Shown: positions 19,143 through 58,739 of the stretch, piece after piece
How positions within the stretch are numbered: the first letter of the stretch is position 1
Layout: every line of letters starts with the position of its first letter
Assembly (NCBI RefSeq): GCF_030013595.1
Contig: NZ_CP122768.1
Source: Escherichia coli
GTDB taxonomy: Bacteria > Pseudomonadota > Gammaproteobacteria > Enterobacterales > Enterobacteriaceae
Length of the DNA stretch: 64,000 bases
Direction: 5' to 3' (one strand)
Program-made: the position numbers and the translations under genes
The notes under the pieces: generated by a model
What the model was told of the DNA's origin: nothing
The model's input: the letters and a program-made list of their open reading frames with translations, nothing else
Database searches by the model: none

Positions 19143-19157
19143 TGGTGTCCCCTGCAG
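19143..19157. repeat. Prophage attL core: 15-bp direct repeat of the argW 3' end (tggtgtcccctgcag)
   Basis: Exact 15-bp copy of the tRNA 3' terminus found at 58665..58679; phage genes lie between the two copies. Confidence 0.7.
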
Positions 19158-19431: not shown

Positions 19432-19473
19432 GAGTGCTATCTCCGAATAGGGAATCGAACCTGCAAATCAGGC

Positions 19474-20991: not shown

Positions 20992-21001
20992 TCAGTGGTT
21001 G

Positions 21002-21193
21002 TCATACCTGGTCTCTCTCATCTGCTTCTGCTTTCGCCACCATCATTTCCAGCTTTTGTGAAAGGGATGTGGCTAACGTATGAAATTCTTCGTCTGTTTC
21101 TACTGGTATTGGCACAAACCTGACTCCAATTTGAGCGAGGCTATGTGCCATCTCGATACTCGTTCTTAACTCAACGGGAGATGCTTTGTGCAT
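21002..21193 (-). CDS. Hypothetical early protein (63 aa), upstream of exo
   Basis: ORF co-oriented in the pL operon; no function assigned. Confidence 0.35.
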   Translation of the reverse strand: MHKASPVELRTSIEMAHSLAQIGVRFVPIPVETDEEFHTLATSLSQKLEMMVAKAEADERDQV

Positions 21194-21344
21194 ACAGCCC
21201 CCCGTTTATTATTTATCTCCTCAGCCAGCCGCTGGGCTTTCAGTGGATTTTGGATAACAGAAAGGCCGGGAAATACCCAGCCTCGCTTTGTAACGGAGTA
21301 GACGAAAGTGATCGCGCCTACCCGGATATTATCGTGAGGATGCG

Positions 21345-22025
21345 TCATCGCCATTGCTCCCCAAATACAAAACCAATTTCAGCCAGTGCCTCGTCCATTT
21401 TTTCGATGAACTCCGGCACCATCTCGTCAAAACTCGCCATGTACTTTTCATCCCGCTCAACCACGACATAATGCAGTCCTTCACGCTTCATACGCGGGTC
21501 ATAGTTGGCAAAGTACCAGGCATCTTTTCGCGTCACCCACATGCTGTACTGCACCTGGGCCATGTAAGCCGACTTTATGGCCTCGAAACCACCGAGCCGG
21601 AACTTCATGAAATCCCGGGAGGTAAACGGGCATTTCAGCTCAAGGCCATTGCCGTCACTGCATAAACCATCGGGAGAGCAGGCGGTGCGCATACTTTCGT
21701 CGCGATAGATGATCGGGGATTCAGTAACATTCACGCCGGAAGTGAATTCAAACAGGGTTCTGGCGTCGTTCTCGTACTGTTTTCCCCAGGCCAGCGCCTT
21801 AGCATTAACTTCCGGAGCCACACCGGTGCAAACCTCAGCCAGCAGGGTGTGGAAGTAGGACATTTTCATGTCAGGCCACTTCTTTCCTGAGCGGGGCTTT
21901 GCTATCACGTTGTGAACTTCTGAAGCGGTGATGACGCCGAGCCGTAATTTGTGCCACGCATCATCCCCCTGTTCGACAGCTCTCACGTCGATCCCGGTAC
22001 GCTGCAGGATAATGTCCGGTGTCAT
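21345..22025 (-). CDS. exo: Lambda-type exonuclease (Red-alpha)
   Basis: 226-aa [43 protein letters not shown]... essentially identical in character to lambda Exo. Confidence 0.9.
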
Positions 22026-22807
22026 GCAGCCACCTTCTGTTCAGAGGCTTTCTGTTTCAGGAATCCAAGAGCTTTCACTGCTTCGGCCTGTGTCAGTTCT
22101 GACGATGCGCGAATGTCGCGGCGAAATATCTGGGAACAGAGCGGCAATAAGTCGTCATCCCATGTTTTATCCAGGGCGATCAGCAGAGTGTTAATCTCCT
22201 GCATGGTTTCATCGTTAACCGGAGTGATGTCGCGTTCCGGCTGGCGTTCTGCAGTGTGTGCAGTATTTTCGACAATGCGCTCGGCTTCATCCTTGTCATA
22301 GATACCAGCAAATCCGAAGGCCAGACGGGCACACTGAATCATGGCTTTATGCCGTAACATCCGTTTGGGATGCGACTGCCACGCCCCCGTGATTTCTCTG
22401 CCTTCGCGAGTTTTGAATGGTTCGCGGCGGCATTCATCCATCCATTCGGTAACGCAGATCGGATGATTACGGTCCTTGCGGTAAATCCGGCATGTACAGG
22501 ATTCATTGTCCTGCTCAAAGTCCATGCCATCAAACTGCTGGTTTTCATTGATGATGCGGGACCAGCCATCAACGCCCACCACCGGAACGATGCCGTTCTG
22601 CTTATCAGGGAAGGCGTAAATTTCTTTCGTCCACGGATTAAGGCCGTACTGGTTGGCGACGATCAACAATGCGATGAACTGCGCATCGCTGGCATCACCT
22701 TTAAATGCCGTCTGGCGAAGAGTGGTGATCAGTTCCTGTGGGTCGACAGAATCCATGCCGACACGTTCAGCCAGCTTCCCTGCCAGCGTTGCGAGTGCTG
22801 TACTCAT
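22022..22807 (-). CDS. bet: Lambda-type recombinase Bet (Red-beta single-strand annealing protein)
   Basis: 261-aa [40 protein letters not shown]...; overlaps exo start. Confidence 0.9.
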
Positions 22808-22812
22808 CCGTT

Positions 22813-23109
22813 TTATACCTCTGAATCAATATCAACCTGGTGGTGAGCAATGGTTTCAACCATGTACCGGATGTGTTCTGCCATGCGCTCCTGAAACTCA
22901 ACATCGTCATCAAACGCACGGGTAATGGCTTTTTTGCTGGCCCCGTGGCGTTGCAAATGATCGATGCATAGCGATTCAAACAGGTGCTGGGGCAGGCCTT
23001 TTTCCATGTCGTCTGCCAGTTCTGCCTCTTTCTCTTCACGAGCGATCTGCTGGTAGTGACGCGCCCAGCTCTGAGCCTCAAGACGATCCTGAATGTAATA
23101 AGCGTTCAT
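22813..23109 (-). CDS. gam: Gam, RecBCD inhibitor (short form; the long form may start upstream)
   Basis: 98-aa [41 protein letters not shown]... Confidence 0.85.
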
Positions 23110-23184
23110 GGCTGAACTCCTGAAAATGGCTGTGAAAATAGCGCCCGCGAAATGCCAGGCTGATTAGGAAAACAGGAAAGGGGG

Positions 23185-23328
23185 TTAGTGAATGCTTTTG
23201 CTTGATCTCAGTTTCAGCATTAATATCCATTTTTTATAAGCGTCGACGGCTTCACGAAACATCTTTTCATCGCCAATAAAAGTGGCGATAGTGAATTTAG
23301 TCTGGATAGCCATAAGTGTTTGATCCAT
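23185..23328 (-). CDS. kil: Kil (host-killing FtsZ inhibitor), 47 aa
   Basis: Internal start of the 89-aa ORF gives [36 protein letters not shown]...SSKSIH, matching lambda Kil. Confidence 0.7.
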
Positions 23329-23461
23329 TTTTTGGGACTCCTGGCTGATTAAGTATGTCGATAAGGCGTTTCCATCCGTCACGTAATTTACGGGTGATTC
23401 GTTCAAGTAAAGATTCGGAAGGGCAGCCAGCAACAGGCCACCCTGCAATGGCATATTGCAT
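23297..23461 (-). CDS. cIII: cIII (FtsH inhibitor), 54 aa; below the ORF-track length cutoff
   Basis: Manual translation of the minus strand: [54 protein letters not shown]. Confidence 0.7.
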   Translation of the reverse strand: MQYAIAGWPVAGCPSESLLERITRKLRDGWKRLIDILNQPGVPKNGSNTYGYPD

Positions 23462-23533
23462 GGTGTGCTCCTTATTTATACATAACGAAAAACGCCTCGA
23501 GTGAAGCGTTATTGGTATGCGGTAAAGCCGCGC

Positions 23534-23845
23534 TTAGGCGGCTGATGTTTCTTCTTTCAGGCTTTCGAGATATTTACGTGGGTCGTCGTAACATTGGCAT
23601 TCGCTGTACCAATCCACCCAGCGATCAGTAAGCCCCACCTCTGATAAATCTTCATCGGTAAGGCTCTCATCCCACATCTCAAGGCCGTTAGCATTGCAGT
23701 AATCAGGCTTGATGTTGTTGTCATACTGAAAGGCGTCATAATCAGCCAGTGCGTCCATCAGGCGAACACCCTCTTCAACACTTGCCACTTCTACAATGAA
23801 CGGCTTCATAGGTACTTGCGGGATATGCCAGACACGTAATTTCAT
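23534..23845 (-). CDS. Hypothetical early protein (position of lambda ea10)
   Basis: 103-aa acidic Cys-containing ORF co-oriented in the pL operon. Confidence 0.45.
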   Translation of the reverse strand: MKLRVWHIPQVPMKPFIVEVASVEEGVRLMDALADYDAFQYDNNIKPDYCNANGLEMWDESLTDEDLSEVGLTDRWVDWYSECQCYDDPRKYLESLKEETSAA

Positions 23846-23989
23846 ATTTCCTCCGTCAAAAAAATGCCCTCACACTGGAGGGCAAAGAAGATTTCCAATA
23901 ATCAGAACAAGTCGGCTCCTGTTTAGTTACGAGCGACATTGCTCCGTGTATTCACTCGTTGGAATGAATACACAGTGCTTATTCGCAGC

Positions 23990-24397
23990 CTACATAATCA
24001 TTCCGGTTATTATTACCATTTCAATATCGCTATCTTTCATAATGATTGGAGTTGAGTTATCAACTTTACTTTTACTCCATTTTCCTGCATCAGTTTTTAC
24101 CGCTCCACAATAAGAAAGCCAATCATCATCACAATGTTCTGGATCACTAATTCTGACAAGAACACGTGATAGTGCTTTTTCGATACTTTCATCACAATTA
24201 GCATTTGTGTAATTGCCGTGAGACAATTTCAAATCGTTAACTTCATCTTCATTGGCATCAAAAATATAGATTTCAGTCGACTCTGGAACATTTTCATAAA
24301 CCATTAAAACTTTCATTTTTACCCCATATTGTTTATGCCAAAAATAAAGGCCACCATTAGGCAGCCTTGTTGTTCTGTTTACCAAGTTCTCTGGCAA
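23990..24397 (-). CDS. AT-rich accessory ORF (moron) of unknown function between ral and the ea10-position gene
   Basis: 135-aa ORF (possibly starting at internal Met MKVLMVYENVPE...); local GC clearly lower than its neighbours. Confidence 0.4.
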   Translation of the reverse strand: MPENLVNRTTRLPNGGLYFWHKQYGVKMKVLMVYENVPESTEIYIFDANEDEVNDLKLSHGNYTNANCDESIEKALSRVLVRISDPEHCDDDWLSYCGAVKTDAGKWSKSKVDNSTPIIMKDSDIEMVIITGMIM

Positions 24398-24557
24398 TCA
24401 TTGCCGTCGTTCGTATTGCCCATTTATCGACATATTTCCCATCTTCCATTACAGGAAACATTTCTTCAGGCTTAACCATGCATTCCGATTGCAGCTTGCA
24501 TCCATTGCATCGTTTGAATTGTCCACACCATTGATTTGTATCAATAGTCGTAGTCAT
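24357..24557 (-). CDS. ral: Ral, restriction alleviation protein
   Basis: 66-aa ORF MTTTIDTNQWCGQFKRCNGCKLQSECMVKPEEMFPVMEDGKYVDKWAIRTTAMIARELGKQNNKAA, matching lambda Ral as recalled. Confidence 0.75.
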   Translation of the reverse strand: MTTTIDTNQWCGQFKRCNGCKLQSECMVKPEEMFPVMEDGKYVDKWAIRTTAMIARELGKQNNKAA

Positions 24558-24685
24558 ACGGATAGTCCTGGTATTGTTCCATCACATCCTGAGGATGCTC
24601 TTCGAACTCTTCAAATTCTTCTTCCATATCTCACCTCAAATAAGTGGTTTGCTGCCTAATTTCATTTTCTGGCGACCAACACAAG

Positions 24686-24958
24686 TCATCTTGCTGTCAG
24701 CTGTTTGGATTTCCTGTAGCCTGCCGCGTAAATGGCTACATTTGGAAGACAAGTTGAGCCTTCATATTTTCTGGTCAACGTTGTCAGTGTTATTACTTCT
24801 GCTCTCATTACTGGTTTGCGTTTGCATTGTAAGACCACTCGTGAAGGGGTTGGCCTGTGTAGCTTGTCAGAGCTGATCGCCTCCTGACTTTGCAGGTTTG
24901 CACGACGAGCTCTACGGCGAGAAGCTGCGGTGCCTTTAAATTCTGTTTTTCTGGACAT
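24686..24958 (-). CDS. N-like transcription antiterminator (arginine-rich motif; P22 gp24-like C-terminus)
   Basis: Arg-rich motif ASRRRARRA near the N-terminus; C-terminus ...VAIYAAGYRKSKQLTAR resembles P22 gp24; start set at internal Met. Confidence 0.65.
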   Translation of the reverse strand: MSRKTEFKGTAASRRRARRANLQSQEAISSDKLHRPTPSRVVLQCKRKPVMRAEVITLTTLTRKYEGSTCLPNVAIYAAGYRKSKQLTAR

Positions 24959-25397
24959 AGATTCCTCCCGAATAAACTTTGGCGATGCAATCTCGAAGCT
25001 CCTCCTGAGACGGTTGCTTCGGCATTGCATCCCACAGCTTATATGGTTGGGTGATCTGGCTTTTCAGCCACGTAGTCGAGTGTTCGACGTTGTTTAAAGA
25101 GCCTGCCAGTCTGCTCCGTTTGGCTTACAGCGTCCTGCTGACGGTTAAATAGTACGATATGTACTTTATTGGGTCAATACAATTTGTTCTAAAATGGGGT
25201 GATTTTTTATAACGCTTTGTATTTAATAGTGTTGTTTTTTAGCGTGGGTGTATCGCCTCGGCGATGTAAGGAGAGATCAGAATTGCGTGGTTTAGTGAGT
25301 TGTATCTATTTATTTTTCAATAAATACATTTGGTTATGTGTCTTTAGGTGGGGGCGTGAGGCAAAGAAAACCCGGCTCGGTGGCCGGGTTGATGGGA

Positions 25398-26255
25398 TTA
25401 TCGTTTATTTCTTTGATGTTTCTTTGCTGACTCAGCTTGAGTGTTTCCATACCTGCGTTTACCGCTATTGTTTTTTCCTCTAGGCTTGCCTTTTTTTCGA
25501 TCTTCCCACCAGTCAGGTGCCGGGTCTGGCTCAACATGTAAAGCATCGGCAAGTCCTGATATCAAGCTGTATGACTGAACTCCATCAATGTGCTCTGACA
25601 GTGATGGGGTAACATTCTGTCTTAGTGGATCAAGAATAAAATCAATACCTTTAATTCTGGCGTGTTTGGCGGCAGGCACAAAGTCTGAGTCCCCAGCAAC
25701 AAGGACAATTACATCAACAAGTTTTTCATAAGCTAAAGTCGTGATATCCATCCCTAGCTTGATATCAACTTGTTTTTGTTTGATGTCATAGTAAAAATCA
25801 TCATTTGTCAGTTCATCCCATTTTTTCGTTCCTTTCATCAGAGCATCAAGGGAGAATGTAGTTAGTTGCCATCGCTTATTATCAACAAGATTCCCTAATC
25901 TTAAGGCTGTTTTTCGAGTTTTTCTTAACTCTTCATGCAGCTCCGTTCTCAGAATATATGATTTTTCGAGTTTGAAATTCTTGCGACCAGGCGTCTTATT
26001 GCCAGGCTCAGGAAGTGGAAGGCGTGTTTGAATGTCGAGTGGTGGACAGTCATAGAAGTAAATTCTATAAAGCTCAAGCGGTTCCCTACGTTCTTGTGAT
26101 TGACGTTTTCCATTAAGATGGGAAAGAACCATTGACCATATTACTTTCATTATGCATTGCGCAGTCAGTTCATGCTCGGCGAAGTGTTTACGATGCGTAG
26201 CATGAACACGCTGCATGAAAAAACCCGCATCAATTAAAATTGCTGCTTTCTTCAT
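25398..26255 (-). CDS. NYN-domain (LabA/PIN-like) putative nuclease, in the position lambda uses for rexAB
   Basis: 285 aa; N-terminal MKKAAILIDAGFF and VIVLVAGDSDFVPAAKHARIKGIDFIL motifs typical of NYN domains; lies between cI and the pL/N region. Confidence 0.65.
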   Translation of the reverse strand: MKKAAILIDAGFFMQRVHATHRKHFAEHELTAQCIMKVIWSMVLSHLNGKRQSQERREPLELYRIYFYDCPPLDIQTRLPLPEPGNKTPGRKNFKLEKSYILRTELHEELRKTRKTALRLGNLVDNKRWQLTTFSLDALMKGTKKWDELTNDDFYYDIKQKQVDIKLGMDITTLAYEKLVDVIVLVAGDSDFVPAAKHARIKGIDFILDPLRQNVTPSLSEHIDGVQSYSLISGLADALHVEPDPAPDWWEDRKKGKPRGKNNSGKRRYGNTQAESAKKHQRNKR

Positions 26256-27042: not shown

Positions 27043-27152
27043 GTCCTTATTATTACGCTCTGTACTGGAACCATCAATGCACAATGTGTATTTTTGCTTG
27101 TATTTGGAAAGTACATATTGTATTTTTTATTCGAGGTTACTATGGAGGGCAT

Positions 27153-27368: not shown

Positions 27369-27509
27369 TAAGCGGAGCCGCTCTTTGTAACAACGGACAT
27401 TCGTCCTACGTCGCTGAAAAGCGAGTCCCAAGATATCTGACCAACTAAGGCCATATGCGTTTCCACGCATACCTTTCAACTAACTATTCACTATTGGAAA
27501 TCTTAAGAA

Positions 27510-29778: not shown

Positions 29779-30237
29779 TTGGGGGAGAGGGAAGTCATGA
29801 AAAAACTAACCTTTGAAATTCGATCTCCAGCACATCAGCAAAACGCTATTCACGCAGTACAGCAAATCCTTCCAGACCCAACCAAACCAATCGTAGTAAC
29901 CATTCAGGAGCGCAACCGCAGCTTAGACCAAAATCGGAAGCTTTGGGCTTGCCTTGGTGACGTTTCGCGTCAGGTTGAATGGCATGGTCGCTGGCTGGAT
30001 GCAGAAAGCTGGAAGTGTGTGTTTACCGCAGCATTAAAGCAGCAGGATGTTGTTCCTAACCTTGCCGGGAATGGCTTTGTGGTAATAGGCCAGTCAACCA
30101 GCAGGATGCGTGTAAACGAATTTGCGGAGCTATTAGAGCTTATACAGGCATTCGGTACAGAGCGTGGCGTTAAGTGGTCAGACGAAGCGAGACTGGCTCT
30201 GGAGTGGAAAGCGAGATGGGGAGATCGGGCTGCATGA
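29779..30237 (+). CDS. ninB: NinB (Orf-family recombination mediator)
   Basis: 152-aa ORF MKKLTFEIRSPAHQQNAIHAVQQILPDPTKPIVVTIQERNRSLDQNRKLWA... Confidence 0.85.
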   Translation: MGEREVMKKLTFEIRSPAHQQNAIHAVQQILPDPTKPIVVTIQERNRSLDQNRKLWACLGDVSRQVEWHGRWLDAESWKCVFTAALKQQDVVPNLAGNGFVVIGQSTSRMRVNEFAELLELIQAFGTERGVKWSDEARLALEWKARWGDRAA

Positions 30238-30761
30238 CTATCAAATCAAATACGCCAGCACACGACAAGGACTGCTGGCAAACGCCGCTTTGGCTTTTTG
30301 ATGCACTGGATATTGAGTTTGGATTCTGGCTGGATTCGGCAGCGAGCGACAAAAATGCTCTGTGTGCTCACTGGCTAACTGAGGCCGACGACGCGCTCAA
30401 TTCTGAGTGGGTAAGCCACGGTGCAATCTGGAATAACCCACCGTACAGCAATATCAGGCCGTGGGTGGAAAAAGCCGCTGAGCAGTGCATACAACAGCGA
30501 CAGACGGTAGTGATGCTTGTGCCAGAGGATATGTCAGTCGGATGGTTCAGCAAGGCTCTGGAGAGTGTCGACGAAGTTCGCATTATCACTGATGGACGGA
30601 TTAATTTTATCGAACCATCGACGGGGCTGGAGAAGAAGGGAAACAGCAAAGGCTCCATGCTGCTGATTTGGCGACCGTTCATCAGTCCTCGACGGATGTT
30701 TACTACCGTATCCAAAGCGGCATTGATAGCGATCGGGCAGGGCGTCAGGAGGGCGGCATGA
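30234..30761 (+). CDS. Phage DNA N6-adenine methyltransferase (Dam-like, NPPY motif), orphan
   Basis: 176 aa from internal ATG overlapping the ninB stop (ATGA); contains NPPY catalytic motif and an SAM-binding-like segment. Confidence 0.7.
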
Positions 30762-31338: not shown

Positions 31339-31507
31339 CCCATCCCAAACCCTTCAATACCAGAAAGAAAGCGTCGAGCGAGCTTTAACGTGCGCTAACT
31401 GCGGTCAGAAGCTGCATGTGCTTGAAGTTCATGTGTGTGAGCACTGCTGCGCAGAACTGATGAGCGATCCGAATAGCTCAATGTACGAGGAAGAAGACGA
31501 TGAATGA
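31331..31507 (+). CDS. ninF: NinF-like zinc-binding protein
   Basis: MLSPSQTLQYQKESVERALTCANCGQKLHVLEVHVCEHCCAELMSDPNSSMYEEEDDE. Confidence 0.6.
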   Translation: MLSPSQTLQYQKESVERALTCANCGQKLHVLEVHVCEHCCAELMSDPNSSMYEEEDDE

Positions 31508-32222
31508 GTTAATAAATGGCAATGCCATCAAAATGACAAGCATTGAAATCGCTGAGTTGGTGGGTAAGCGTCATGACAATGTGAAACGTACCATCGAAAC
31601 GCTGGCTAAAAATGGTGTTATCCGGCTTCCTCAAATTGAGGTTTCCGAAAGAATCAATAACTTAGGGTTCAATGTTCAGTACGAGCATTACGTCTTCGAA
31701 GGCGAACAAGGTAAGCGAGATAGTATTGTTGTTGTTGCCCAGTTGTCGCCAGAGTTCACCGCTCGCCTTGTTGACCGCTGGCGAGAGCTTGAAGAAACTG
31801 CGGCTAATATCCCCAAAACGCTACCAGAAGCGTTGCGCCTTGCTGCTGATCTTGCTGAGCAGAAAATGCAACTGGAAAACCAGCTCGCAATTGCCGCACC
31901 TAAAGTTGAGTTTGCCGATCGTGTTGGCGAGGCCAGCGGAATTTTGATTGGAAACTTTGCAAAGGTTGTTGGAATTGGTCAAAACAAACTGTTTGCGTGG
32001 ATGCGCGATCACAAAATCCTTATTGCTTCAGGTTCCCGGCGCAATGTGCCAATGCAGGAATATATGGATCGCGGCTATTTCACAGTGAAAGAAACAGCGG
32101 TCAATACAAATCACGGAATACAGATATCGTTCACCACAAAAATCACCGGGCGTGGCCAACAGTGGCTGACCAGAAAGCTGCTCGATAACGGAATGCTGAA
32201 AGTAACAGGGGAGGCTGCTTAA
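31500..32222 (+). CDS. Rha-family / KilA-C domain phage regulatory protein (antirepressor-like)
   Basis: 240 aa; N-terminal MNELINGNAIKMTSIEIAELVGKRHDNVKRTIETLAKNGVI (Rha-like) and a KilA-C-like C-terminal half. Confidence 0.6.
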   Translation: MNELINGNAIKMTSIEIAELVGKRHDNVKRTIETLAKNGVIRLPQIEVSERINNLGFNVQYEHYVFEGEQGKRDSIVVVAQLSPEFTARLVDRWRELEETAANIPKTLPEALRLAADLAEQKMQLENQLAIAAPKVEFADRVGEASGILIGNFAKVVGIGQNKLFAWMRDHKILIASGSRRNVPMQEYMDRGYFTVKETAVNTNHGIQISFTTKITGRGQQWLTRKLLDNGMLKVTGEAA

Positions 32223-35941: not shown

Positions 35942-36484
35942 ATGAATTATCCAACTATCGTTAACGGCATCGATTTCCGAGAACTGATTTTTGTGGCAAA
36001 CAACGATCCGGTTACAGATTCTTTTATGGTGGCAAAAGCATTTGGAAAGCTGCCGAAGAACGTGGTTCGTGACATTGAGCGAACCATAGAAGCTTGCCCT
36101 CCTGAGTTTGATACAAAGCTCAACTTTGAGCTTTGCTATAAAAACAATGAGTTACAGAATGGTAAGCCGCAAAAATTCTACCGTCTACGCAAGGATGGGT
36201 TGATGCTTTTGGTTATGTCCTACACCAAAAAAGAAGCAATGCGTATCAAAATTGCTTACATCAACGCATTTAACTGGATGTACGCCATGCTTCAGGTTGG
36301 TCATCGTCAATTTGAAGAAGAGAGAAATGCCGTAATGCTGGAGTACATGAAAGAGAAGGATGTTGCCAGCATGTCAGGTCGCCTGCTAAATCGCTGGGGC
36401 AAAATTAAGAAGCCACAGTTGCTGGCTAGAATTGAACGCCTTGAACAGCACGGGCAAACCGTAATCCCCGGACTCATCAATTAA
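35942..36484 (+). CDS. Rha-family phage regulatory protein (second copy of the fold in this prophage)
   Basis: 180 aa MNYPTIVNGIDFRELIFVANNDPVTDSFMVAKAFGKLPKNVVRDIERTIE...; between the lysis cassette and terminase, as in P22. Confidence 0.6.
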   Translation: MNYPTIVNGIDFRELIFVANNDPVTDSFMVAKAFGKLPKNVVRDIERTIEACPPEFDTKLNFELCYKNNELQNGKPQKFYRLRKDGLMLLVMSYTKKEAMRIKIAYINAFNWMYAMLQVGHRQFEEERNAVMLEYMKEKDVASMSGRLLNRWGKIKKPQLLARIERLEQHGQTVIPGLIN

Positions 36485-51637: not shown

Positions 51638-52011
51638 ACCAACCTCCTTAGTTTTGCTCAGGATACCAGATGATACTTTATTGGTGGAGTGGTGTGTGAA
51701 AACGTGTCAACGACAAACCATCCACAACTTGGACGAATGATTTAGCAAAAAGTGCTATTTTTGGTGTTTAGTGTCATAGAAAAGTGAATAGCTCACTTTT
51801 CAACATTGCATGAAACTTGCAGGAAATGTGACATTACCTTATAGGTAATTTCGGCGAAAATGCAGTAAATGTGAAACGTAATGGTTTAAACATGTCGCTA
51901 AAGTGGTTGTAAGTTAGCCTCCGAAGGATTGCTGATAGCTTTGTTATAGTATTAAATGACATTTGACATAGTTGGATACTTAGCTGTGGCTATCAAGATG
52001 GAGGTGTGTTC

Positions 52012-52455
52012 ATGCTTACTTGTTTTGATGTCGCCGACTACTTCCTGTCGCGGTGTGACGAGGATAGCGGTGACACAATCTCTAATTTAAAATTACAAAA
52101 GCTTGTTTACTATGCTCAGGGGTTTTCATTGGCGTTGCTTGGTGAGCCTCTTTTTCAGAATAAGATGGAAGCTTGGATGCATGGCCCTGTTGTCCCTGAG
52201 CTTTATCGCCGTTATAAACAATATGGTAATGGAGCTATCCCTTCTCCAGAGTCTTTTGATGCTGAAAAATTCAGCGAAGAACAGTTAGAGCTATTAGAAG
52301 AAGTCTGGGATGTTTTTGGGCAATTTTCTGCCTGGAAACTGAGGAACATGACACACGAAGAGTCACCATGGAGATCAAACTATATTGAGGGTGTTGGTGG
52401 TTCTGAAATTAGCTCTAAGGAGATGGCAGAGTACTTTGCAACTCGGATTAACTAA
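52012..52455 (+). CDS. Panacea/DUF4065-like (SocA/GepA-type) protein, putative antitoxin-type component
   Basis: MLTCFDVADYFLSRC...NLKLQKLVYYAQGFSLALLGEPLF...AWMHGPVVPELY matches the recalled DUF4065 signature; GAGGTG SD upstream. Confidence 0.55.
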   Translation: MLTCFDVADYFLSRCDEDSGDTISNLKLQKLVYYAQGFSLALLGEPLFQNKMEAWMHGPVVPELYRRYKQYGNGAIPSPESFDAEKFSEEQLELLEEVWDVFGQFSAWKLRNMTHEESPWRSNYIEGVGGSEISSKEMAEYFATRIN

Positions 52456-52459
52456 CGAG

Positions 52460-52879
52460 ATGGCAAGAAAATCTAAAAGGATTATCCCCCCTGCTGAATC
52501 TACAGGTAAGTTAAAGTTAGGGCCGCAGTCAGGGGGGAATTCAGATCAAAAGAAACCGAAATTTTCATTCTGTTACATCCAAAGCTCTCACTGCATAACG
52601 AAATGCCAAAAAGATGAGAAAGCTGGCTTAGCTGATAAATTATACAGATTAAGTCAACTAACATGGGCAGAGATTAAGCAGCAAGGTAGGCATAAGCTTG
52701 GATTTGAGAAGATTGCAAGGGGTGCAATTAAAGCTGGTATCCCCGGTCATATAACGGAAGACGTAGATCATTTCTTGGCTTTTAGATTTGATGATTTGAA
52801 AGCCATGGTTGGTTATCGTCTTGGATCGACATTTTTTGTTATATGGCTTGATAGAGAGTTCAACCTATACAAGCACTAA
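52460..52879 (+). CDS. Unknown partner protein (139 aa), translationally coupled to the Panacea-like gene; candidate toxin/effector
   Basis: ATG 4 bp after the upstream stop; basic N-terminus, Cys/His cluster, C-terminal ...GYRLGSTFFVIWLDREFNLYKH; strong terminator follows. Confidence 0.5.
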   Translation: MARKSKRIIPPAESTGKLKLGPQSGGNSDQKKPKFSFCYIQSSHCITKCQKDEKAGLADKLYRLSQLTWAEIKQQGRHKLGFEKIARGAIKAGIPGHITEDVDHFLAFRFDDLKAMVGYRLGSTFFVIWLDREFNLYKH

Positions 52880-53463: not shown

Positions 53464-53781
53464 CTATTTTTTCTCAGAGCTCATATTGTAATAGGTGGTA
53501 TAAATAGAGATTGATTTCTGACATGCTTCAAGAAATTGCTGCGGAGTCATCCCGAGCCTTGCTTGCTCTGTAGTAAGGAATCTCTGTAAGAATTCATTCC
53601 CACCTGGCATGTTTGTAGATTCTTGGAATATTGCCATTTGTTTGATTGCACCACACATACCAGCCATTTTAGAAGCTATCATGAGGCCTTGTATTTCATC
53701 AAAACTGCTATCGTCTGATTTTGTTTCTGCGTTAGCTATGCTCGAGAGACACAGGAGCAATAGGATAGCGATACGTTTCAT
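53464..53781 (-). CDS. Secreted/periplasmic protein (105 aa, cleavable signal peptide), co-transcribed with the mnt-like gene
   Basis: MKRIAILLLLCLSSIANA signal sequence; start overlaps the mnt-like stop (ATGA). Confidence 0.5.
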   Translation of the reverse strand: MKRIAILLLLCLSSIANAETKSDDSSFDEIQGLMIASKMAGMCGAIKQMAIFQESTNMPGGNEFLQRFLTTEQARLGMTPQQFLEACQKSISIYTTYYNMSSEKK

Positions 53782-54346: not shown

Positions 54347-55276
54347 ATGAAAAGTATAGCAACAGCAGTATCTACTATCAACGTGCCATTCCACGGCGCA
54401 GAGCTTTATGTCGTCAATCACAACGGTGAGCCGTACACCCCAATGAAACCTATCGTTGAAGGTATGGGTATGGATTGGGCTTCACAGTTTACGAAAATAA
54501 AGCAACGGTTTAAAACCTCCATTGTGAAAATCACAATGCAGCTTCCTGGTGATGAACAGTGCCGTGAGATTATTTGTTTGGCACTTCGCAAACTTGCTGG
54601 CTGGCTGCAAACCATCAGTCCAAACAAAGTCCGCCCTGAAATCCGCGACAAGGTAATCCAGTATCAGGAAGAGTGTGACGATGTGCTATACGAGTACTGG
54701 ACTAAAGGCCATGTAGTTAACCCACGCAAAGCTAAAAAGGCGTTGCCGGGTAAAATCACCACTGAACAGCAGGAAGCCATTAAACAACTCGTCATGAGTC
54801 GCGGTCAGTCTCTGCCAAAAGAAAAACAGGCTAAGGCGATGATCACCATGTGGTCGTCACTGAAATCCCATTTTGGATGTTCGTACAAAGAAATCAGTGA
54901 GGAGCAGTTTACCGAAGCACTGTCACTTGCTGCTCGAGTTCCACTTGAAGGTGAGTTCATTGGCAAACAAGAGAAGAAAACCAACGAGCTTTCTGCAAAA
55001 GAAGCAAACAGCCTTGTATGGCTCTGGGATTATGCTAACCGTTCACAGGCATTATTCCGCGAATTGTATCCGGCGCTAAAACAAATTCAATCGAACTATT
55101 CCGGCAGATGCTACGACTACGGTCATGAATTCTCGTATGTTATCGGAATGGCGAGAGACGTTTTAATCAATCACACACGAGATGTTGATATTAATGAGCC
55201 AGACGGACCAACGAATCTTTCCGCATGGATGAGACTTAAGAATAAAGAATTACCTCCTTCAGTACATAACTACTGA
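54347..55276 (+). CDS. Antirepressor (Ant-like)
   Basis: 309-aa ORF following the arc-like gene, in the position of P22 ant. Confidence 0.6.
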
Positions 55277-58664: not shown

Positions 58665-58679
58665 TGGTGTCCCCTGCAG
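58665..58679. repeat. Prophage attR core: 15-bp direct repeat (tggtgtcccctgcag) within the argW 3' end
   Basis: Exact copy of 19143..19157. Confidence 0.7.
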
Positions 58680-58739
58680 GAATCGAACCTGCAATTAGCC
58701 CTTAGGAGGGGCTCGTTATATCCATTTAACTAAGAGGAC
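58665..58739 (-). tRNA. argW: tRNA-Arg (anticodon CCU), argW; prophage attR at its 3' end
   Basis: Reverse complement reads GTCCTCTTAGTTAAATGGATATAACGAGCCCCTCCTAAGGGCTAATTGCAGGTTCGATTCCTGCAGGGGACACCA. Confidence 0.9.

Follow-up and report, generated by a model that had tools for sequence, protein, structure and literature searches.

Does the prophage in a 64,000-nucleotide stretch of the Escherichia coli contig NZ_CP122768.1 (assembly GCF_030013595.1; hereafter the window) still encode the restriction-alleviation protein Ral and the RecBCD inhibitor Gam, and in what kind of operon and phage do the two genes sit? A sequence-only reading of the window had held that both genes are intact in the early-left operon, had placed them together at 24357-24557 and had proposed BLASTP against the lambda proteins as the check, with failure to align over the full length counting against it. 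We consider it highly probable that the locus holds an orthodox lambda-type ral and gam in the N-dependent pL operon of a complete P22/Sf6-like prophage in an E. coli-type chromosome. The analysis showed directly which genes these are, that they are intact, where they stand in the operon and that control elements are there, and from the near-identity (98%) of Ral and Gam to the studied lambda proteins we infer that their biochemical activities are shared.

The first gene is as follows.

24357..24557, minus strand: ral, restriction-alleviation protein, 66 amino acids (open reading frame (ORF); PF11058; alignment to lambda Ral; conserved residues).

In the ORF list, ral is a single frame of 66 codons, from ATG to TAA, that fills these coordinates exactly. 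Its product matched Pfam PF11058 over the whole model (1-66/66, E=1.7e-48, 162.5 bits against a cutoff of 25) and PHROG 1055, 'restriction alleviation ral' (E=1.9e-49), while BLASTP aligned it over its full length to lambda Ral with 65/66 identities (98.5%); identity to P22 Ral was 78%. Short ORFs are plentiful here, with 91 of at least 30 amino acids overlapping the 7-kb region, and on that ground a 66-codon frame might be open by chance alone, or its product might be some other small protein wrongly assigned to Ral. We give that idea next to no credence, given full-length matches in two independent profile libraries (E ~1e-48) and 98.5% identity to lambda Ral; the same matches and identity, together with the conserved residues, rule out a pseudogene.

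Compared with its lambda counterpart at the DNA level, ral has a single non-synonymous change (K7T), two synonymous ones, and TAA as its stop codon in place of TGA. In an alignment of 39 Ral sequences T7 is the family consensus, so that by this alignment K7T is a return to it. The window protein also holds every invariant or near-invariant residue of the alignment, both around the cysteines (C11, C17, C20, C26, L22 and M27) and further along (P30, D44, W46, R49, T50, T51, M53 and I54). Residues 11-26 follow a CX5CX2CX5C pattern that is conserved across the family, and these four cysteines suggest, as a hypothesis, a metal site. The protein is basic, with an isoelectric point (pI) of 8.4. In an AlphaFold2 model built from the 39-sequence alignment, which reached only moderate confidence (predicted local distance difference test score 69), residues 36-43 form a beta-hairpin and residues 45-64 a helix, and the Cys-rich N-terminus is poorly modelled. 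A sequence search of the PDB returned no relative of Ral, and a Foldseek search of the model against the PDB gave no match under E=5.

The second gene and the frame that precedes it are these.

22813..23109, minus strand: gam (GamS form, 98 amino acids), RecBCD inhibitor (PF06064; lambda Gam; PDB 2uuz/5mbv; ribosome-binding site).
23078..23230, minus strand: remnant of the GamL N-terminal extension, a separate 50-codon frame (lambda DNA alignment; ORF list).

The gam gene sits outside 24357..24557, about 1.3 kb further down the operon. GamS matched PF06064 from end to end (1-98/98, E=3.4e-65, 216.8 bits against a cutoff of 25), is identical to residues 41-138 of lambda Gam at 96/98 positions (L22I and S61A in GamS numbering), and aligned over 1-98 with the PDB chains 2uuz_A and 5mbv_A (5mbv being the RecBCD complex) at E ~1e-61 (about 2.5e-61). 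The 138-amino-acid GamL frame, by comparison with lambda, is split by a 1-bp insertion in a T-run (alignment column 375). This indel lies at ~23127, ~18 nucleotides 5' of the GamS ATG, and the upstream GamL ATG now starts a separate 50-codon ORF. Because the insertion breaks the GamL frame and GamS has its own ribosome-binding site (AGGAG, 7 nucleotides 5' of the ATG), only GamS, not GamL, is encodable from this sequence. GamS is the form used for biochemistry and the solved structure (PMC5218532); as it is the form in both solved structures and in the biochemical work, and carries its own ribosome-binding site, the functional inhibitor is intact. Membership in the Gam family (PF06064) is likewise unaffected by the loss of GamL, the profile and the solved structures both corresponding to GamS.

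A sequencing error 5' of gamS was ruled out: the 81-nucleotide stretch bearing the insertion recurs with 100% identity in at least eight complete E. coli genomes that are independent of one another, and 48 records match it at 99% or more. The GamL frame is open in 180 of the 194 phage records with gam, making the window allele a minority one, and the existence of a natural GamS-only allele in dozens of E. coli genomes is small evidence that GamL is dispensable.

The statement that Ral is intact thus stood, with a full-length PF11058 match and 65/66 identities. That Gam is intact held for the full-length 98-amino-acid GamS (96/98 to lambda) but not for the 138-amino-acid GamL frame, which is frameshifted. 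The proposed BLASTP comparisons aligned Ral and, in its functional form, Gam from end to end, contrary to the outcome that would have spoken against the reading. The joint coordinates fit ral exactly and miss gam, which lies at 22813..23109.

Whether the two genes could be expressed as an early-left operon turns on its promoter, its antitermination sites and the genes that surround them.

25146..25190, minus strand: candidate pL, TTGACC-17-TACTAT (25177 to 25149), within OL operator-like repeats (promoter scan).
25057..25102, minus strand: nutL, with boxA-like GCTCTTTAA at 25094-25102, hairpin 1 at 25075-25088 and boxB TGGCTGAAAAGCCA at 25057-25070.
27380-27424, plus strand: nutR, between cro and cII, the expected position (mismatch search).
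24686..24958, minus strand: N-type antiterminator, 90 amino acids (PF25694 N_peptide, E=1.5e-32; sequence).
24541..24627, minus strand: orf28, 28 amino acids, hyper-acidic (sequence; geometry in nine ral loci; coding sequence in lambda and Sf101).
24347..24368, minus strand: terminator-like hairpin with U-run, spanning the ral stop codon (scan; fold energy).
23297..23461, minus strand: cIII, FtsH inhibitor (PF02061, E=1.5e-30; ~99% DNA identity to lambda).
23185..23328, minus strand: kil, division inhibitor, 47 amino acids (PF06301, E=8.6e-20).
22022..22807, minus strand: bet, RecT-family annealase (PF03837, E=1.5e-32).
21345..22025, minus strand: exo, lambda exonuclease (PF09588 YqaJ, E=4.3e-30).

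The operon runs pL/OL, nutL, N, orf28-ral, orf108, gene 17, cIII, kil, gam, bet, exo; behind exo come DUF1317, DUF1382 and Ea22-like genes. The pL candidate matches the consensus at 9/12 positions, in a region where the number of promoter-like sites is not above shuffle expectation, and the OL inverted repeats recur in the OR region at 27108-27129. Both nut sites share one layout (boxA GCTCTTT, ACAAC, a hairpin, TACG, and a boxB whose hairpin has a GAAA loop), and both hairpin stems covary between nutL and nutR. This equal layout, with its compensatory stem changes, argues that the N/nut system is functional. The layout is unusual and appears to resemble the H-19B/933W type of nut site. N begins with an ATG behind GGGAGG and has an arginine-rich N-terminus; E. 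coli O157:H7 493/89 has an annotated 273-nucleotide coding sequence at the corresponding position. Judged from these elements, the early-left operon is apparently complete and the pL operon apparently functional. The earlier assignment of ral and gam to the early-left operon is therefore borne out by a pL candidate with repeats shared with OR, by paired nutL and nutR, and by the presence of N.

Immediately upstream of ral, orf28 encodes MEEEFEEFEEHPQDVMEQYQDYPYDYDY, with a net charge of -12, and is annotated as a coding sequence in lambda and Sf101. Its 3' end overlaps the ral ATG (-70..+17), a geometry that is identical in 9/9 ral loci checked and makes translational coupling probable. Between the window and P22, orf28 differs at 2/84 nucleotides and ral at 39/180, orf28 being the better conserved. 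Because homology between ral loci stops directly upstream of orf28, orf28-ral acts as one cassette. The hairpin across the stop codon of ral folds at -13.9 kcal/mol (z=-2.6) and is kept in the lambda alignment. The scan found no terminator-like site between N and ral, and ral may for this reason be transcribed together with N before antitermination sets in.

The prophage that carries this operon spans about 19.5-58.7 kb. To its left lies chromosome of E. coli type (evgS, emrY, csc), and its right end holds the integrase and a tRNA-Arg(CCU) gene (58665-58739). A 16-nucleotide att core repeat occurs at 19451 (19451-19466) and at 58679, and a second, 15-nucleotide 3' fragment of tRNA-Arg(CCU) lies at 19143-19157, ~300 bp from the 16-nucleotide copy. 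Clean att sites did not turn up; because only the core repeat and the second tRNA fragment were found, the prophage ends are approximate. The two partial tRNA-Arg(CCU) copies at the left end suggest successive integrations at this tRNA.

The set of virion genes is complete and of P22/Sf6 type, with gp3, terminase, P22 portal, scaffold, coat, gp10, an Sf6-type needle knob, ejection proteins, a tailspike whose head-binding domain is of P22 type, and mnt/arc/ant. Also present are cI, cro, cII, O, P, Q, Rz and the integrase, and cI keeps its S24 self-cleavage (peptidase) domain. By gene content the prophage looks complete and inducible, and it is P22/Sf6-like rather than lambda-like.

It could nevertheless be argued that ral and gam, though intact, are carried silently by a prophage that is defective or never induced, and have no present function. 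Many prophage copies of ral have decayed: the gene is not retained everywhere, the closest complete-genome relative, E. coli O157:H7 493/89, has it in frameshifted form, and truncated Ral proteins are numerous in the databases. The att core repeat is, moreover, short (16 nucleotides) and has a second partial tRNA fragment nearby. Yet all regulatory and structural genes checked are full length, cI retains the self-cleavage domain, and ral differs from lambda by only one non-synonymous, consensus-restoring change and two synonymous ones, so that we regard silent cargo as very unlikely.

Within this P22/Sf6-like prophage, lambda-like blocks (97-99% identity) lie at 20997-23542 (97.8% identity, with gam-bet-exo inside it), 23859-23978 and 24329-24652, broken up by two non-lambda inserts, one with gene 17 (in place of ea10) and one with orf108. 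On another view, Gam, with Bet and Exo, serves this phage mainly in recombination and replication and less as an anti-defence gene: a headful-packaged, terminally redundant P22-type genome must circularise by recombination after injection, and the lambda Red plus Gam cassette would replace P22 erf/arf/abc1/abc2 as housekeeping. The virion and packaging module is indeed P22/Sf6-type, gam-bet-exo forms one lambda-like block, and in P22, BTP1, N7, Sf101 and CUS-3 this place in the operon is taken by erf, which may or may not be accompanied by abc1/abc2. Poteete and colleagues are said to have found that P22 circularisation needs Erf or RecA and that lambda red/gam can substitute. Still, the accessory and anti-defence roles are not exclusive, as both rest on RecBCD inhibition, and RecBCD is treated as an immunity hub, with Gam as its inhibitor and as the trigger of retron Ec48 (bioRxiv 10.1101/2020.06.21.156273). 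A primarily accessory role therefore strikes us as rather unlikely, albeit the most serious of the alternatives, and we continue to read gam, with ral, as lambda-type counter-defence.

On that lambda-type reading, loss of the cI repressor at induction, or infection of a new cell, would let pL fire, and N acting at nutL would carry RNA polymerase past the hairpin terminators, so that N, orf28-ral, orf108, gene 17, cIII, kil, gam, bet and exo would be transcribed in that order. Ral would then shift Type IA enzymes from maintenance to de novo methyltransferases, and unmodified phage DNA would be methylated instead of cut; lambda Ral is described as acting in this way on enzymes of the EcoKI family through the HsdM N-terminus (PMC12707154; PMC3874165), and a 2025 functional screen recovered Ral again as a Type I inhibitor (PMC12373910). 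Gam, for its part, would protect linear phage DNA ends so that Bet/Exo recombination could proceed. The GamS dimer is a DNA mimic that sterically blocks RecBCD's DNA-binding site (PMC5218532), and Gam also binds KwaB of Kiwa (PMC11785009). RecBCD has been cast as an immunity hub guarded by retron Ec48, which Gam triggers, and lambda vir escapers of this retron carry gam frameshifts (bioRxiv 10.1101/2020.06.21.156273).

Several points weigh against this picture. No Type IA system was found within the 64-kb window. The promoter and terminator assignments are consensus matches only. Ral is without a solved structure and its AlphaFold2 model is only of moderate confidence, which bears on the physical basis of Ral action in general. 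For Gam, the activity of GamL was equal to or slightly above that of GamS in some assays (PMC5218532), and without GamL its potency could subtly differ.

The window holds further genes of note, several of which touch on defence, counter-defence or immunity.

23534..23845, minus strand: homolog of P22 gene 17, counter-exclusion (PF17420, 1-98/98, E=5.6e-55; 87% identical to P22 gp17).
23990..24316, minus strand: orf108, an acidic, uncharacterised protein of 108 amino acids, in the non-lambda insert just downstream of ral.
25398..26255, minus strand: NYN-domain protein, 285 amino acids (PF01936, E=6.8e-9; PHROG 5783, E=1.5e-119).
30174..30761, plus strand: N6-adenine DNA methyltransferase of the Dam family, nin region (PF05869, E=2.3e-64; PADLOC 'orphan methyltransferase', E=1.7e-19).
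31500-32222, plus strand: Rha/KilAC-type antirepressor-like gene, Phage_pRha with ANT.
35942-36484, plus strand: Rha/KilAC-type antirepressor-like gene, Phage_pRha with ORF11CD3.
52006-52879, plus strand: SocA/Panacea antitoxin-like gene (PF13274, E=1.9e-24) and an overlapping 164-codon ORF (only a weak PADLOC NsnC match, 1.4e-5).
53464-53781, minus strand: 105-amino-acid ORF with a signal-peptide-like N-terminus, MKRIAILLLLCLSSIANA, adjoining mnt.

The gene 17 homolog takes the place of lambda ea10; P22 gp17 is annotated as 'allows growth on phage Fels2 lysogen'. With it the operon has a third gene for counter-defence, one that the sequence-only reading had left off its list. The product of orf108 gave a confident structure model without a solved-structure relative. 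Its apparent rarity, from five matches, proved wrong: the exact protein is on 616 contigs, and what is small is the diversity of the family (59 representative clusters). Together with the ultra-conserved 28-amino-acid orf28, orf108 is a mildly interesting by-product of the analysis, and these are the only two.

The NYN gene lies between cI and OL/pL, in the slot held by rexAB in lambda and by BstA in BTP1, and because of this match in position it is probably lysogen-expressed cargo outside the pL operon. Its PADLOC matches are weak (HEC-09, 2e-4; NYN, 1.4e-3). The exact protein is on at least 1,000 contigs, Klebsiella included; in E. coli O157:H7 493/89 the NYN protein is split or truncated. 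The pair at 52006-52879 sits between the ejection-protein genes and mnt/arc/ant and looks like a toxin-antitoxin or defence module. The ORF beside mnt, at 53464-53781, gave no family match and could encode a surface or superinfection-exclusion moron. Both Rha/KilAC-type genes are additional to the P22-type Ant at 54347-55276.

The claim that the prophage carries an NYN gene and a Dam-like methylase was confirmed by the PF01936 and PF05869 matches, and the broader one, of several layers of defence and anti-defence cargo, proved sound: ral, gam, NYN and Dam are real, with gene 17 besides. If induced, the prophage would be equipped against Type IA restriction and RecBCD with the means classically known from lambda, gene 17 would add action against prophage-encoded exclusion, and the lysogen-side cargo would comprise NYN, the Dam-family methylase and the Panacea-type toxin-antitoxin-like pair. 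Carriage of gam is also a liability, because Gam is the signal sensed by retron Ec48.

Neither gene is rare. DNA matching ral was found in 885/5426 complete E. coli genomes, in 785 of them with at least 80% coverage, and 117 phage records encode Ral, among them P22, Sf101, SfI, CUS-3, N7 and HZ41; the gam region was found in 3116/5426 of the same genomes. The exact Ral and the exact GamS are each on at least 1,000 public contigs and are named as such already. The window's ral and gam are textbook lambdoid biology, and annotation pipelines give them the right names already.

Set beside known systems, the window ral resembles that of lambda (AAA96575.1; PF11058), with which it shares a 66-amino-acid product, an overlapping orf28 upstream, a hairpin over the stop codon and a place in the pL operon downstream of N. 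It differs in K7T and in its TAA stop codon, where lambda has TGA, and its surroundings differ too: there is no sieB between N and ral, for which reason the N-to-ral gap is only ~130 bp, and ral is followed by orf108 where lambda has a short spacer leading to ea10. Similarly, gam resembles lambda gam (GamS; 2uuz, 5mbv; PF06064) in its 98-amino-acid product, its AGGAG site and the order kil-gam-bet-exo, whereas the 138-amino-acid GamL frame of lambda is broken in the window copy by the 1-bp insertion. With P22, BTP1, Sf101, CUS-3, N7 and HZ41 the prophage shares a general plan, N - (orf28) - ral - between one and three small, variable genes - (17) - cIII - kil - recombination/anti-RecBCD module, and with P22-like phages (Lederbergvirus) it shares P22-type virion genes and immI (mnt/arc/ant); Ral of HZ41 is 100% identical to that of the window. 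P22-like phages, however, have erf/arf/abc1/abc2 where the window prophage has lambda gam/bet/exo, BTP1 has BstA in the cI-N slot where the window has NYN, and P22 has sieB between 24 and ral. Finally, T7 Ocr, ArdA and Lar/RalR of the Rac prophage resemble Ral in allowing escape from Type I restriction (PMC3874165; PMC12373910), with no kinship in sequence seen, although none was looked for; but Ocr and ArdA block the enzyme as acidic mimics of DNA, whereas Ral is basic and stimulates methylation.
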